Below, piece after piece: positions 6,370-38,668 of a DNA stretch of 64,000 nucleotides (positions within the stretch are counted from its first letter, which is position 1; each line of letters starts with the position of its first letter). Origin of the DNA: Vicinamibacterales bacterium (GTDB lineage Bacteria > Acidobacteriota > Vicinamibacteria > Vicinamibacterales > JAMQPK01); assembly GCA_963746535.1 (NCBI GenBank), contig CAVVBP010000007.1, positions 752,319 to 816,318 on the forward strand, in the 5' to 3' direction. Made by a program: the position numbers and the translations under genes. The notes below the pieces were generated by a model. It made no database searches, had not been told where the DNA came from, and worked only from the letters and a program-made list of their open reading frames with translations.

Positions 6370-7341
6370 GTGAAATTTCTCACTGCCTCGGGCGTCTTGT
6401 CAGGGCTGTGTCTGATATCTGCAGTGCACAGTGCGGCTCAGGTCTTGAGTCCTCCAAAATTTCCTGAGACCGTGACGGTATCTCCAGGGCCAAAGACGAA
6501 CTTGTTTCCGCACGTCATGAAGAAAGCCGAAGTGCTTGCAGCCCTGTCGCAAGTCAAGGAGTCGCAGGATCTATTTGTCAAAAGCAACGCCGGAGTCGCA
6601 TTGCGTGTTGCTTCTAACACAATGAGGTTGCCTTGGAAACAGCACCTCGAAGCAGATGAACTGTGGTTCGTATATCGCGGCGCGGCGAAAGTGAGCCTGG
6701 CTCACTTCTCGCTGCAGCTGGGGATCACCGCACCCGGCGAGACCTACAGCGTGGGAGAAGGCGATATCCTCAATGTTCCGCGGGGTATCGCGTATCAGAT
6801 CATGCCAGGTTCCGAACGCTTTGAATATGTTGCGGTTCGAAAGTTTGCCATTCAGCGGCCAAATTCGCAGCAGACCGCAGCGGCTGGTGGCCAGCCAGGT
6901 TCTCCCGTGACGACAAAGGCACAGATCGACGAATGGTACGAGGCGGGCATTGCAGGTACTTCCGGCATCCCGCCGGGAATCAACAGAATCATCTTCGACC
7001 GCGCCAAAGGTCCTGACTGGCGTAAAGGCGGGGCTCCTGGTCCCTGGGAGAACCACGAGACTAATGAGCACCTCACTATTGTGGTTTACGGAACCGCGAA
7101 GGCCACTCTAGACGGCTTTGTTACCGGCGCGGCGTGGGACAATCGCGGCGTAATGGGTAGGGGCGTGGTCGGCGGCAGCGATTACACGGTCGGACCCGGA
7201 GACCTGGTTTTTGCTTTTCGGAATACCGCGCACTTTTTTGATCCCATCTCTCAGAAATTCGGGTACCTCCTGGTGGATTTGCCGCAAAGTGAGCGGTTCT
7301 GGCCTACATCGATAGTGCCCAATGGAGCCGGTCCGTATTAG
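6370..7341 (+). CDS. Secreted two-domain cupin-like protein, paralogue 3 of 3
   Basis: GTG start immediately after the TAG of the previous gene. Near-colinear with paralogue 1 (SPGPKTNLFPHVMKKAEVLAAL..., EADELWFVYRGAAKV, GDILNVPRGIAYQI, FEYVAVRKF). Confidence 0.8.
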   Translation: MKFLTASGVLSGLCLISAVHSAAQVLSPPKFPETVTVSPGPKTNLFPHVMKKAEVLAALSQVKESQDLFVKSNAGVALRVASNTMRLPWKQHLEADELWFVYRGAAKVSLAHFSLQLGITAPGETYSVGEGDILNVPRGIAYQIMPGSERFEYVAVRKFAIQRPNSQQTAAAGGQPGSPVTTKAQIDEWYEAGIAGTSGIPPGINRIIFDRAKGPDWRKGGAPGPWENHETNEHLTIVVYGTAKATLDGFVTGAAWDNRGVMGRGVVGGSDYTVGPGDLVFAFRNTAHFFDPISQKFGYLLVDLPQSERFWPTSIVPNGAGPY

Positions 7342-34055: not shown

Positions 34056-34071
34056 CGGCACGGAACCGGCA
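34056..34071 (+). promoter_or_regulatory. Weak-to-moderate candidate sigma54 promoter upstream of the serine dehydratase operon
   Basis: ACGGCACGGAACCGGCAC: GGCACG at 34057-34062 and GC at 34069-34070 (GG-N10-GC). Shares CGGCACGGAA with the module promoters. The -12 element is CGGCA rather than TTGCA. Confidence 0.3.
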
Positions 34072-34121
34072 CGATTCAGCCCGAACCGCGTCGTCATACA
34101 CAAAGGAGCTGGAGAAGCACC

Positions 34122-35753
34122 ATGTCCAACAGAGACGACGTGAAAGACGATGATCGCGATCTGCTCGACCCTTCGCCGCAGGTGCCATCGGAGATTCCGA
34201 CCGGCGTCGACCGCCGGAAGTTCATCGTGCGCAGCGCCGTGATCTCGGCCGCGACGGTGATGAACGGCTGCACGCGATCGGAGACCGAACAAAAAGCCCC
34301 TCCGCCCGCAGCCGAATCTGCACCGGCGGCCGCTGCGCCCGCTGTCCCGTTGGCTGGCGACCTGAACGTGGTGATGAAGCAAAAGGGGCCGGTGTTGACG
34401 ACCGTGGACGAGTTCTACAAGGTGGGCCCTGGCCCTTCCAGTTCGCACACGATTGGTCCGATGCGCATTACCTACGATTTCTACCAGCGAGCCACCAAGC
34501 TGCCGGCCGACCAGCTCGCCAAGGCGACGAAGCTTCAGGTAAACCTGTTCGGCAGCCTCAGCGCGACGGGCAAGGGACACGGCACGGAGCGCGCCGCGCT
34601 CGCCGGGCTGGTCGGGAAAGAACCGGCCACGGTCGACCCGTTATTTCTGGACAGCTTGCGAGACAAGCCGGACCAGGTGTTCCCGGTGAAGCTCGGCAGC
34701 AAGTCCATCGATGTAAGCCTCAAGGATGTCATCTACGATGCGCCCAAGGGTGACTTCAAACACCCGAACACGATGACGGTCAAGCTCCTCGCCGGCAACG
34801 ATGTGCTGCTCGAGCAGGAGTACTACTCGGTGGGCGGCGGATTCATCGAGTGGAAAGGCTATACGCCCCCGAAGAAGAACCCGCCGAAGTACCCGTTCGC
34901 GACGATGAAAGAGCTTCGGGCCCACGCCGACGACAACAAGACCACCATCGCCAAGATCATGCTCGCCAACGAGATGTCGATCACGGGCAGGTCGGAAGCC
35001 GAGGTGAATGCCTTCGTCGACAAGATCATCAACGCGATGGTCGCGACGGTAAAGTCGGGGCTTTCGATGTCGGAGGATGACGTGCTGCCCGGACCGATCA
35101 AACTGCACAGCAAGGCCGCGTCCGTTTACAAGCGCGCGATGGACGACAAGTTTCCGGCGGACCGCGGTATCGGCATTCTGTCGGCATTCGCGTTGGCGGC
35201 ATCCGAAGAGAATGGGCGCGGGCACCTCGTCATCACCGCGCCGACCGGCGGTTCCGCCGGTGTGATGCCGGCGCTGGTCTACGGGCTCTCTGAGATCCGG
35301 AAGGTCGATCGGCAGAAGCTCCGTGACGGCATGCTCGCGGCCGCGGCGATCGGTTACCTCTGCAAGCACCATGCGACGCTGTCTGCGGCCGAGGGCGGCT
35401 GCCAGGCGGAGATCGGCGTGGCGTCGTCGATGGCGGCGGCATTGACCGCGACCGCGTACGACGCACCATCGCTGGTCGTCGAGAACGCGGCCGAATCGGC
35501 TCTGGAGCATCACCTGGGCATGACCTGCGACCCGGTCGCCGGTTACGTGCAGGTGCCATGTATCGAACGCTGCGCCTTCGGTGCGGTCAAGGCCTGGACC
35601 GCCTACGCGATCGCCAGCAACGAGATCGCGTCGAGACACCGGATCAGTTTCGACGAGACCGTGTTAGCGCTGGCCCAGACGGCGAAAGAGATGAACAGCA
35701 AGTACAAGGAAACAAGCGAGGCTGGTCTCGCCCTCTCCGTGGTGCTCTGCTGA
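34122..35753 (+). CDS. sdaA: Fe-S L-serine ammonia-lyase (single-chain L-serine dehydratase) with an N-terminal extension of about 105 aa carrying a twin-arginine signal
   Basis: RBS AAGGAG. DRRKFIVRSAVISAATVMNGC Tat-type signal, then FYKVGPGPSSSHTIGPMR, GGSAGVMPALV and CDPVAGYVQVPCIERCAFGAVKA, typical of SdaA. Confidence 0.9.
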   Translation: MSNRDDVKDDDRDLLDPSPQVPSEIPTGVDRRKFIVRSAVISAATVMNGCTRSETEQKAPPPAAESAPAAAAPAVPLAGDLNVVMKQKGPVLTTVDEFYKVGPGPSSSHTIGPMRITYDFYQRATKLPADQLAKATKLQVNLFGSLSATGKGHGTERAALAGLVGKEPATVDPLFLDSLRDKPDQVFPVKLGSKSIDVSLKDVIYDAPKGDFKHPNTMTVKLLAGNDVLLEQEYYSVGGGFIEWKGYTPPKKNPPKYPFATMKELRAHADDNKTTIAKIMLANEMSITGRSEAEVNAFVDKIINAMVATVKSGLSMSEDDVLPGPIKLHSKAASVYKRAMDDKFPADRGIGILSAFALAASEENGRGHLVITAPTGGSAGVMPALVYGLSEIRKVDRQKLRDGMLAAAAIGYLCKHHATLSAAEGGCQAEIGVASSMAAALTATAYDAPSLVVENAAESALEHHLGMTCDPVAGYVQVPCIERCAFGAVKAWTAYAIASNEIASRHRISFDETVLALAQTAKEMNSKYKETSEAGLALSVVLC

Positions 35754-35758
35754 TCTTA

Positions 35759-37111
35759 ATGAGGCTCCTCGCTGGAACTCGACCTGGCAAGAGTTCTACG
35801 AGGAGCCTTCATTGCTCCCGGCGATGGCTCGCCAGGGCTTCGGTCGCATTGGCGTTGACGTTCGTTCCGTTCCTCACAACGTCTGCCTCCGGACAGTCGC
35901 CCGCACCACAGCCAAAAGACGAACGCTACAAAGACGGCATCGTCATCTGGGAAACTCCCCCGGATGCGGACGTGCCGTTCCTGCTGAAGTTCAACATCAA
36001 TACCCAGCTCCGCTATCTCAACACCCAGGATAGCGACGAGACCTACACCGACCACCTGGGTGTTACCCGCGACGTTCACACGCGGAACGACATCACCGTC
36101 AATCGCGCGATGTTCATCCTGGGCGGCTACGTGTTCGACCAGCGGGCGCGATATAGCTTCACCGTCTGGACGTCCGCGGGGGCCGCGTCTATTGTTGTTG
36201 CCAGCAACATTGGCTGGCAATTCAACAAAGCCCTCACCATCATGGCAGGCTACACGGGCATTCCGGGCAGCCGATCGCTGGTCAACACGTTTCCGTTTTT
36301 TACTGGAACCGACAGGAGCATGGCCGACAACTTCTTCCGCCCGGGATTCACGCAGGGCGCCTGGGCGAGCGGAGACCTGGGGAAGGGGCTGAATTACTTA
36401 GCGTTCATCGGCAACGGTCTGAATACGCTGAGTATCTCGGCCAACAAGATCGATACGCATCTGGCGTTCTCCGGCAGTACCTGGTGGGAGCCGCTGGGCC
36501 CCTACGGGGAACCCGGCAAGTCTCGCAACATGTACGACGATTATTTCGCGTCCGACCAGGTGCGCATTCGCCTGGGCACGGCATTCACGCGATCGCGCGA
36601 AGACCGTTTTTCCAATCTCGATCAATCGAGTCCCGAGAACACGTCGTTGTACAACTCCGACGGCGTGCTGACCTTTTCGACCGGCGCGTTTGCGCCGGGT
36701 GTCACGCTCGACCAGGCGACGTACAGGATGTGGGCGGCCGACGCCGGCATCAAATGGAACGGGCTTGCGATCAACGGGCAGTACTTTATGCGTTGGCTGG
36801 ATGATTTCGAGTCCGACGGACCGCTTCCGCTTGCATCTACCTTCGACCGCGGCGGCGAGGTGTCGGCGGGCTATTTCGTCGTGCCGAAAAAATGGATGAT
36901 CTACGGCCGCGGCTCGTGGGTGCGCGGAGAGTTCGGCGACTCTCATGAGTACGGCGTCGGGGCGAAGTGGCACATGCTTCCGACGGAACGGCTCTGGCTC
37001 AACACAGAGCTATTCCGGGTCAACAAAGCTCCCTATAGCGGGGCCTTCACTCCGTATACCGCGGGTATGACGGGCTGGGTGCCGATGGTGCAGACAGTCC
37101 TCGCGTTCTGA
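35759..37111 (+). CDS. Outer-membrane beta-barrel porin (phosphate-selective porin O/P-like)
   Basis: ATG 5 nt after the sdaA stop. Signal peptide. Alternating barrel sequence ending ...MVQTVLAF. Confidence 0.65.
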   Translation: MRLLAGTRPGKSSTRSLHCSRRWLARASVALALTFVPFLTTSASGQSPAPQPKDERYKDGIVIWETPPDADVPFLLKFNINTQLRYLNTQDSDETYTDHLGVTRDVHTRNDITVNRAMFILGGYVFDQRARYSFTVWTSAGAASIVVASNIGWQFNKALTIMAGYTGIPGSRSLVNTFPFFTGTDRSMADNFFRPGFTQGAWASGDLGKGLNYLAFIGNGLNTLSISANKIDTHLAFSGSTWWEPLGPYGEPGKSRNMYDDYFASDQVRIRLGTAFTRSREDRFSNLDQSSPENTSLYNSDGVLTFSTGAFAPGVTLDQATYRMWAADAGIKWNGLAINGQYFMRWLDDFESDGPLPLASTFDRGGEVSAGYFVVPKKWMIYGRGSWVRGEFGDSHEYGVGAKWHMLPTERLWLNTELFRVNKAPYSGAFTPYTAGMTGWVPMVQTVLAF

Positions 37112-37222
37112 CGACCATCCGCTCAAGGCGCCAACGGATTTCAGGCGCGGATACCGCAAACAGTGATAAAAGAGTGCTCTGCTACGATCAGGCGCAGGCC
37201 GGATCATTGAGGGAGGCCTTGT

Positions 37223-37630
37223 GTGCATCTAGTAACTGTGTGCATGGCGCTTTTTGCTGGACTTCTGAGTCAACAGGCGGCCGCGCCCTCCCTTGATTAC
37301 GAGTACTTCAAGTCGAGAGTGCAGCCGATCTTCGTGGCGAGGCGTCCGGGCCACGCCAGATGCATCGCGTGTCACGCGTCGGGGACGCCGCTGCGATTGC
37401 AGCCCCCATCGGTCGATGGTTCGAGCTGGACGGAAGAGGCGTCGAAGAAGAACTTCGAGGCCATGCGGCGCGTCGCGTTTGCGGGAAACGCGAAAAGCCT
37501 GCTGCTGGTCCACCCACTCGAAGAGACGGCCGGCGGAGACTTCTTTCACAGTGGTGGCAAGCACTGGGCCTCGCAAAACGATCCCGAGTGGCAAGTGCTA
37601 AGAGCGTGGATCATGGGCCAGACCAGGTAG
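37223..37630 (+). CDS. Small secreted c-type haem protein (Planctomycete-cytochrome-C-like domain)
   Basis: GTG start after GAGGGAGG. Single CxxCH (CIACH) in the context FKSRVQPIFVARRPGHARCIACH. Confidence 0.6.
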   Translation: MHLVTVCMALFAGLLSQQAAAPSLDYEYFKSRVQPIFVARRPGHARCIACHASGTPLRLQPPSVDGSSWTEEASKKNFEAMRRVAFAGNAKSLLLVHPLEETAGGDFFHSGGKHWASQNDPEWQVLRAWIMGQTR

Positions 37631-37645
37631 AGGGAGGAGAGAGCG

Positions 37646-38668
37646 ATGAAGACTGTTCCACGGACCCTCGTTCTCGTAATGGGCGCAATGATTTTGTGTA
37701 CATTCTCGCTTTCTGCGCAGAACAAGGTCCGGATCATCCAGACCAACAGCGCAGGGGACAACGTCCACATCATCGATCCCGCCACCAACAAGGTCGTGGG
37801 CGAGATCAAGGGCATCGAGGCCGGACACGGCGCCGGCGCCTCGCCCGATGGCACACGCATCTACATCAGCAACGAAGCTGAGAGCACGCTCGATTTCGTC
37901 GATGCCAGAACGTTGAAGGTGTTGACGCGCGTCCCGCTCAGCGCCCACCCGAACAACATGGCTGTCGGCAAGGACGGCAAGCACGTCTACGTCGGGATCA
38001 TTCAGGATCCCGGTGGCGTCGACGTCATCGAGACGGCGACGCACAAGAAGATCAAGAACGTCCCGACCAAGGGCACGATCCACAACGCGTACGTCACACC
38101 AGATGGCAAGTATGCGGTGGCGGGCTCGATTGGCGGCAAGAGCATCAACGTCATCGACGCGGACACGTTGCAGACCGCGTGGACGATGGACATGGACCTT
38201 GGCGTCCGGCCGATGACGTTCAACACGAACCCGGACGGTTCCACAAAGTGGATCTTCGTGCAGGTCAGCGGCTTCAATGGATTCGCGGTCGTCGACTTCG
38301 CGACGCACAAGGAGATCAAGCGGATCAAGAACCCGGACCTTCCGCCAGGGAAGTCGACCGTAACAGCCGGATCCGATCCGTCGCACGGCATGGCCGTCAC
38401 CTCCGACGGCAAGACGCTCGTCGTCTGCAGCCGCTTGAACAACTACCTCTACTCGTACTCGCTGCCGGACTTGAAGCACCTCGGCGGCGCGGAGCTGGGC
38501 GGGAAGGGCGCCGGCTGGGTGACGCTGACGCCCGACGGGAAGACCGCGTACGTCGCGAACCCGGTGACCAACGATGTGTCGGTCGTCGACGTCGCGTCGA
38601 TGAAGGAAACGTCACGAATCAAGGTCGGGTTCGTGCCGAAGCGCAACGCGACCGTGATGCTTCAATAA
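37646..38668 (+). CDS. YVTN-repeat (YncE-like) seven-bladed beta-propeller protein, secreted
   Basis: Repeated ...PDG..xYVxN.....VxVID... blades (SPDGTRIYISNEAESTLDFVD, TPDGKYAVAGS, TPDGKTAYVANPVTNDVSVVD). Confidence 0.8.
   Translation: MKTVPRTLVLVMGAMILCTFSLSAQNKVRIIQTNSAGDNVHIIDPATNKVVGEIKGIEAGHGAGASPDGTRIYISNEAESTLDFVDARTLKVLTRVPLSAHPNNMAVGKDGKHVYVGIIQDPGGVDVIETATHKKIKNVPTKGTIHNAYVTPDGKYAVAGSIGGKSINVIDADTLQTAWTMDMDLGVRPMTFNTNPDGSTKWIFVQVSGFNGFAVVDFATHKEIKRIKNPDLPPGKSTVTAGSDPSHGMAVTSDGKTLVVCSRLNNYLYSYSLPDLKHLGGAELGGKGAGWVTLTPDGKTAYVANPVTNDVSVVDVASMKETSRIKVGFVPKRNATVMLQ

Follow-up and report, generated by a model that had tools for sequence, protein, structure and literature searches.

The window analyzed here, a 64,000-nucleotide (nt) stretch of the genome of a Vicinamibacterales bacterium (contig CAVVBP010000007.1, positions 752,319 to 816,318), contains a gene, sdaA, for an iron-sulfur (Fe-S) L-serine dehydratase whose catalytic core is preceded by an N-terminal leader with the architecture of a twin-arginine translocation (Tat) signal. 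In textbooks, Fe-S L-serine dehydratases are oxygen-labile enzymes of the cytoplasm. We consider it likely, on comparative grounds, that this one is exported through the Tat pathway and is a periplasmic serine deaminase, probably anchored by a lipid. A conserved Tat signal, together with an adjoining gene for an outer-membrane porin, makes it probable that serine is deaminated in the periplasm.

The core of SdaA has the hallmarks of a type 2 serine dehydratase

As for the enzyme itself, comparison with known families identifies the core of SdaA as a complete type 2 Fe-S L-serine dehydratase, for which catalytic activity is predicted. Pfam places SDH_beta (PF03315) at residues 97-245 and SDH_alpha (PF03313) at residues 272-537, while the NCBIfam model for single-chain L-serine ammonia-lyase (TIGR00720) matches from residue 95 with 395.9 bits, against an equivalog cut-off of 345.1. 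The GPGPSSSHT motif occupies residues 102-110. When the protein is aligned with the L-serine dehydratase (LSD) of Legionella pneumophila (PDB 4RQO, E = 4e-89), its GGCQAE, GMTCDP, and VPCIER motifs fall into register. Residues C427, C469, and C480 are invariant in a 40-sequence alignment and line up with GCQGE, MTCDP, and PCIER in 4RQO; these would be the [4Fe-4S] ligands, as reportedly described by Thoden et al. 2014. The chain ends in ...VVLC, its terminal residue C543 being nearly invariant (kept by 90% or more of the sequences that make up this alignment). A C-terminal Cys is an intrinsic inhibitor in the Legionella enzyme (LpLSD). Since both domains are present, the family cut-off is passed, and the cluster and terminal Cys residues are kept, the core has all the sequence hallmarks of an active type 2 enzyme. 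An earlier, sequence-only reading of the window had proposed an SdaA-type enzyme from the open reading frame (ORF) and its motifs, and both are borne out by the Pfam, TIGR00720, and 4RQO comparisons. The genome encodes a single SdaA-family protein, with no second sdaA.

SdaA thus resembles LpLSD and the SdaA, SdaB, and TdcG enzymes of Escherichia coli in the order of its beta and alpha domains, in passing TIGR00720, and in its three cluster Cys residues and C-terminal Cys. However, it differs from these canonical type 2 enzymes in several respects. It has about 92 extra N-terminal residues, with signal architecture and a Pro/Ala tether. It is also only about 40% identical to them and belongs to a distinct, porin-linked subclade with recurrent Tat-type leaders, whereas the known enzymes are cytoplasmic.

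The leader has the properties of a translated Tat signal

The leader is composed of an acidic n-region, the motif D-RRKFI, an h-region of 12-14 residues, Cys50, and the Pro/Ala tether. The sequence D-R-R-K-F-I-V at residues 30-36 is followed by 14 uncharged residues (S38-T51), which fits the (S/T)-R-R-x-F-L-K-like pattern and uncharged h-region of Tat signals; residues 30-50, from the twin-arginine motif through Cys50, read DRRKFIVRSAVISAATVMNGC. We surveyed 81 loci (80 genome loci and the window) for the presence of this leader. It is kept in frame in 79 of the 81, and its RR and F residues are 100% conserved; the two remaining loci, from long-read metagenome-assembled genomes (MAGs), are frameshifted. 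The extension described by the sequence-only reading is therefore present and conserved, but it is about 92 residues long rather than 105. Within the signal block of 22 codons, nucleotide diversity is 0.19 at the first codon position, 0.15 at the second, and 0.51 at the third. Third positions are thus about three times more variable than first and second positions while RR and F are kept, which argues for purifying selection on a translated peptide. The extension is found in all close homologues (86-97% identity), with a RRKF...GC block that is invariant in the alignment, and indels in the n-region and the linker comprise whole codons.

The end of the signal varies. The residue that follows the M-x-G closing the h-region is Cys in 33 of the 81 loci, the window included, and Arg in 28. 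In most of the Arg loci, the c-region is basic and the sequence continues as x-VSA/EERT, where the slash marks a site of the signal peptidase I type; some sister loci have VMTGC. Two alternative types of processing site behind one conserved RR/h-region would be hard to explain unless the leader were a cleaved signal. The structural model is consistent with this. In an AlphaFold2 (AF2) model with a mean predicted local distance difference test score (pLDDT) of 81.5, the core is confidently predicted, while residues 1-85 have a pLDDT below 50 and are disordered apart from a lone helix at residues 31-49. Moreover, the genome encodes two TatC proteins (PF00902; 218 and 196 bits) and about 60 further plausible RR-x-F-L signals, some with lipobox cysteines as in Tat-type lipoprotein signals. 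The two tatC genes are separate, at G000:C12:70163-70798 and C12:373837-374472.

Together, these findings support the view that the leader is a real, translated, and conserved Tat-type signal on SdaA. The sequence-only reading had pointed to a twin-arginine motif with a hydrophobic region and to a Cys that might be lipidated, and had called for a survey of SdaA homologues. The motif is upheld by the complete conservation of RR and F, the codon-position statistics, the alternative cleavage sites, the tatC genes, and the disorder of the modeled extension; the candidate Cys holds as well, being invariant in the window's subgroup, with a lipobox that is non-canonical.

Soil metatranscriptome contigs from relatives cross the junction between leader and core, which is evidence of transcription through the leader, not proof of a translation start. 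Contigs from four such runs cover the sdaA of this lineage densely (window 34100-35760), at 88-99% identity, which suggests that the sdaA family is transcribed in soils. The depths of sdaA and of the porin gene are not comparable in these runs because the runs were selected with sdaA.

A porin gene is the conserved partner of sdaA

The ATG of the porin gene lies 5 nt past the sdaA stop codon, as the sequence-only reading had it, and the linkage is kept well beyond the window. A porin gene is found downstream on the same strand in 54 of the 69 loci with enough sequence, and it is the sole widely conserved neighbor of sdaA. By this synteny, the porin is a predicted member of the sdaA unit. AF2 predicts a β-barrel with moderate confidence (pLDDT 59), for which the best PDB folds found by Foldseek are OprP (2o4v, E = 4e-12) and OprO (4rjw, E = 4e-11), with template modeling (TM) scores of about 0.5, followed by general 16-strand porins. 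In the ESM Atlas, it lies among clusters named phosphate-selective porin O and P. OprP and OprO are anion-specific porins of Pseudomonas aeruginosa. The window porin resembles them in its fold, Sec signal, C-terminal Phe, and the names of its ESM Atlas neighbors. However, it differs in having no Pfam match even at E<=10 (PF07396 included), none in NCBIfam, and none among PDB sequences in a profile search with the porin alignment, and in the moderate confidence of the model on which the likeness of fold is based.

A few genes in the survey are broken. The sdaA leaders of loci L043 and L078 are frameshifted near 7000-7240, and the porin genes of L008 (8779-10077) and L079 (9027-9713) have in-frame stops. 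All four loci come from long-read MAGs, so the defects are either assembly errors or recent decay.

Clustering of all ORFs in the 81 sdaA loci revealed a wider context. Exported glutaminase A genes with DcaP-type porins stand beside sdaA in about 15 loci (13-16), an exported Amidohydro_2 protein with a porin paralogue is encoded there in about 15 (13-16), and DUF3300 and DUF2950 are found there in 8-10. Loci of the Pyrinomonadaceae type have a same-strand run of sdaA-(porin)-MFS-pta-ackA, where MFS denotes a transporter of the major facilitator superfamily, and in four of four additional extended sdaA loci, MFS and/or pta are directly downstream. By comparison, none of these partner genes lies within 5 kilobases (kb) of sdaA in 16 of 16 canonical acidobacterial loci, which served as a control. 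In relatives, the pair formed by Tat-sdaA and porin is embedded in a glutaminase/amidohydrolase/MFS-pta-ackA island. The window's own genome has such an island without sdaA on another contig, C14, at about 303.5-314.8 kb (G000:C14:303500-314800; L085, L097). This island encodes a signal-peptide glutaminase A, a DcaP porin, a signal-peptide Amidohydro_2 protein, a porin paralogue with 39% identity to the window's porin, DUF3300, DUF2950, and ackA-pta-MFS. A Tat-SdaA gene of Syntrophales, on a metagenome contig, likewise adjoins DUF3300 and DUF2950. The DUF3300/DUF2950 pair by a Tat-signal sdaA is seen across phyla (L100/L101, 3337-5656; L069, 2736-5399; L072, 3710-6332).

Distribution of Tat-bearing SdaA

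An exhaustive search of representative sequences placed the extended form in one main 50%-identity cluster, P0121. More distant SdaA proteins have different Tat-type leaders: P0128 (MDRRDFCKL...), P0130 (MTLRRTFLK...), and P0148. Members of the P0128 and P0130 clusters are labeled Syntrophales and Desulfovibrionaceae and are named L-serine ammonia-lyase only. All Tat-bearing representatives in a tree of 91 sequences group within one 9-row subclade (Shimodaira-Hasegawa-like approximate likelihood ratio test, SH-aLRT, 92) of a 16-row clade (support 100), and this subclade also holds leaderless members. The Tat signals on SdaA of Syntrophales and Desulfovibrionaceae look independent. Among 200 Acidobacteriota genomes drawn evenly, extended SdaA is encoded in five, the window's own genome included, and canonical SdaA in about 40; many genomes of the window's order in this draw are without any SdaA. 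A further subgroup of extended SdaA, in loci L119 and L121 (G063:C32, G150:C46), has CX2CX4CX2C before the RR motif, for example, CDGCSSTACAMCP...KLDRRQFG.

Export weighed against other explanations

The proposed model is as follows. The [4Fe-4S] cluster would be inserted and SdaA folded in the cytoplasm, and TatABC would then export the folded protein. In the window's lineage, the signal would probably be cleaved and Cys50 lipidated, leaving the catalytic domain on a Pro/Ala tether of about 40 residues at a periplasmic membrane face, while in sister lineages cleavage at the signal peptidase I-type site would set the enzyme free as a soluble periplasmic protein. The porin encoded next to sdaA would let substrate through the outer membrane, periplasmic L-serine would be converted to pyruvate and ammonium, and the products would then be taken up. 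Pyruvate uptake might be by the linked transporter, which is of the MFS anion-symporter type, with acetate formed via Pta-AckA and a gain of ATP. The presence of MFS, pta, and ackA in the same operon of relatives (in the window's own genome, on C14) suggests this route from imported pyruvate to acetate and ATP.

Several points weigh against this model. Two hidden Markov models (HMMs) of Tat signals do not match, PF10518 giving nothing at E<=10 with residues 1-99 and TIGR01409 nothing at E<=0.01, a weak test since both models are short. The V-M-N-G-C at Cys50 is lipobox-like but, with Met at -3 and Asn at -2, non-canonical by the PROSITE and DOLOP lipobox rules. Dehydratase-type [4Fe-4S] clusters are oxygen-labile, and the periplasm is not known to have a repair system for them, yet the known cultivated members of this bacterial class are aerobes. 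By analogy with the tdc genes of E. coli, a cytoplasmic operon for serine fermentation would account just as well for the MFS-pta-ackA context, and the porin reading depends on a fold modeled with moderate confidence. Finally, in-frame GTG or ATG codons occur near the start of the core in 80 of the 81 loci, so an extra, short cytoplasmic isoform is compatible with the sequence.

Alternatively, the leader might be vestigial or repurposed, as is the Tat-like leader on E. coli NarG, and SdaA cytoplasmic, the leader acting as a handle for a chaperone or cluster insertion or as a tether to the inner face of the membrane near the transporter. Besides the silent HMMs, this would fit the fact that all characterized Fe-S serine dehydratases are, to our knowledge, cytoplasmic and oxygen-labile, and the resemblance of the relatives' MFS, pta, and ackA operon to cytoplasmic serine/threonine fermentation operons. 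We nevertheless regard it as unlikely. One would not expect a vestigial leader to retain, across 81 loci, the full n-h-c architecture together with a basic residue in the c-region and either a Cys or a VSA-type site; with its 12-14 uncharged residues, the h-region does not have the length needed to anchor the protein across a membrane; and the conserved partner is an outer-membrane porin, with neighboring enzymes that carry export signals.

We give a lower probability still to dual localization, in which the long form is exported and translation from an internal start at GTG83, GTG84, or ATG85 gives a canonical SdaA in the cytoplasm as well. In the window, as in most relatives, these in-frame starts precede the core motif by 17-19 codons, and a second product would explain cytoplasmic activity in a genome with only one sdaA. 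However, no Shine-Dalgarno-like sequence precedes the internal codons, whereas the ATG at 34122 has GGAG at 7 nt, in a context (..ggaactggagaagc.ccATG) that is kept in the upstream alignment of close relatives. Met85 is Lys in many homologues, and the Val codons simply reflect conserved residues in a GC-rich gene. Moreover, a cytoplasmic copy is not required, since many genomes of the same order are without SdaA. For the same reasons of missing Shine-Dalgarno-like sequence and replacement by Lys, Met85 was rejected as the main start.

A further reading, which we hold to be very improbable, has SdaA exported but acting in vivo on a different small hydroxy- or thiol-amino acid, such as threonine, cysteine, or D-serine, or on some derivative that the porin lets in. 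In its favor, identity between the clade and canonical enzymes is only about 40-47%, the TIGR00720 score of 396 is not far over the cut-off of 345, and CyuA, a related enzyme of the SDH_alpha fold, is a cysteine desulfidase (PMC12647591). Against it, SdaA retains every signature motif of its family as well as the inhibitory Cys at its C-terminus.

Other features of the locus

The coordinates of sdaA, its leader, and the neighboring features are collected in Table 1.

Table 1. Features of the sdaA region, in window coordinates
Feature	Position	Strand	Details
GGCACG-N6-GC sigma-54-like match	34057..34070	+	GGCACGGAACCGGC; GG-N10-GC spacing correct; probably not functional
Ribosome-binding region	34102..34114	+	AAAGGAG then CTGGAG; GGAG 7 nt 5' of ATG
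sdaA coding sequence	34122-35753	+	ATG start; 543 amino acids (aa); complete single-chain Fe-S L-serine dehydratase
Predicted Tat signal peptide, residues 1-49	34122..34268	+	n-region 1-29 acidic; D30-R31-R32-K33-F34-I35; h-region S38-G49
Cys50, candidate lipidation/signal peptidase II site (V-M-N-G-C)	34269..34271	+	Invariant in the window's subgroup
Pro/Ala-rich flexible tether, residues 51-94	34272..34403	+	Length varies by whole-codon indels; pLDDT below 50
Catalytic core, predicted type 2 single-chain [4Fe-4S] L-serine dehydratase, residues 95-543 and stop codon	34404..35753	+	TIGR00720 and 4RQO match
Outer-membrane porin, 450 aa	35759-37111	+	Sec-type signal; C-terminal Phe (...VLAF); AF2 β-barrel
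Small exported CXXCH protein, 135 aa	37223-37630	+	C47-I-A-C-H51 (residues 47-51)
YVTN-type β-propeller, 340 aa, signal peptide	37646-38668	+	TIGR02276, 76.6 bits (cut-off 27.85)

The two genes that follow the porin gene form a pair of their own. The sequence-only reading had listed a CIACH haem protein and a YVTN propeller as the next genes; both are present on the same strand, but they are not part of the sdaA unit, the pair being found in none of 80 related sdaA loci. In six further relatives, the CXXCH protein and the propeller are paired without a porin adjoining. A two-gene unit of this kind is seen in about half of 30 related genomes, independent of sdaA, sometimes with the cytochrome c genes in tandem duplication. 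A four-gene operon with the cytochrome c and propeller genes was rejected on this synteny, which marks the two as a separate conserved unit that, as far as gene order can tell, lies downstream here by chance of location. A scan for terminators and promoters between the porin and cytochrome c genes yielded nothing informative. The CXXCH protein matches no Pfam or NCBIfam family. The propeller resembles TIGR03866, a family associated with pyrroloquinoline quinone (PQQ) catabolism, at 98 bits, which is below the cut-off of that model, and the likeness is weak.

Upstream of sdaA, a sigma-54 promoter was considered and rejected. The GGCACG-N6-GC element noticed by the sequence-only reading has three mismatches to TGGCACG-N4-TTGCW, and the distance from its last base to the ATG is 51 nt, not 46. 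The pattern is found 15 times in the window against nine expected by chance, and in an alignment of upstream regions none of the close relatives has the site. A riboswitch or leader RNA was also rejected, as Rfam at E<=1 gave only a spurious match. About 90 nt before the ATG, close relatives (loci L006, L007, L011, L016, L032) instead share a conserved upstream leader with the inverted repeat CCGCTCG...CGAGCGG, which has no match in Rfam and may be a regulatory site; the window has only a diverged version of it.

Discussion

The closest counterparts of the proposed arrangement are Tat-exported Fe-S or cofactor proteins and Tat lipoproteins, such as hydrogenase small subunits and DmsB-type proteins. 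SdaA resembles them in its RR-x-F-hydrophobic motif, its weakly hydrophobic h-region, and its cofactor-bearing cargo, as well as in the basic residue near the c-region of sister lineages and the tatC genes in the genome. It differs in that its cargo belongs to the dehydratase class, with a solvent-exposed catalytic [4Fe-4S] cluster, for which we found no described exported example. The non-canonical lipobox, and the lack of a dedicated proofreading chaperone gene nearby, are further differences. A literature search for periplasmic, exported, or Tat serine dehydratases found no relevant paper, only incidental co-mentions, and Tat-leader SdaA is apparently an undescribed variant of a known enzyme.

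The gene context of relatives also invites comparison with a classical system. The tdcABCDEFG operon of E. coli is an anaerobic threonine/serine degradation operon. The run of sdaA-(porin)-MFS-pta-ackA in relatives likewise unites dehydratase, transporter, and acyl-phosphate/kinase genes in one operon. However, the dehydratase here has an export signal, an outer-membrane porin is inserted, and the MFS-pta-ackA genes of the window's own genome are on another contig. Taken further, and only tentatively, soil Acidobacteria and some anaerobic Desulfobacterota might run part of their amino-acid catabolism outside the cytoplasm, with porins feeding exported SdaA, glutaminase A, and amidohydrolase, together with DUF3300/DUF2950, and with the carbon skeleton imported by an MFS symporter and fermented via Pta-AckA. 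The porin and the linked genes (glutaminase, amidohydrolase, DUF3300/DUF2950, and MFS-pta-ackA) make this a testable pathway model, with possible functions for several uncharacterized families.

On this reading, SdaA would be the first Fe-S enzyme of the dehydratase class to work in a periplasm, encoded by a gene that soil metatranscriptome contigs cover. Export would widen the range of Tat cargo to a catalytic cluster of the dehydratase class, and it would pose the problem of how a cluster of this kind persists, or is repaired, away from the cytoplasm. It would also mean that, in abundant soil bacteria, a large conserved clade routed through Tat carries out serine deamination, and so frees ammonium and pyruvate, in the periplasm.

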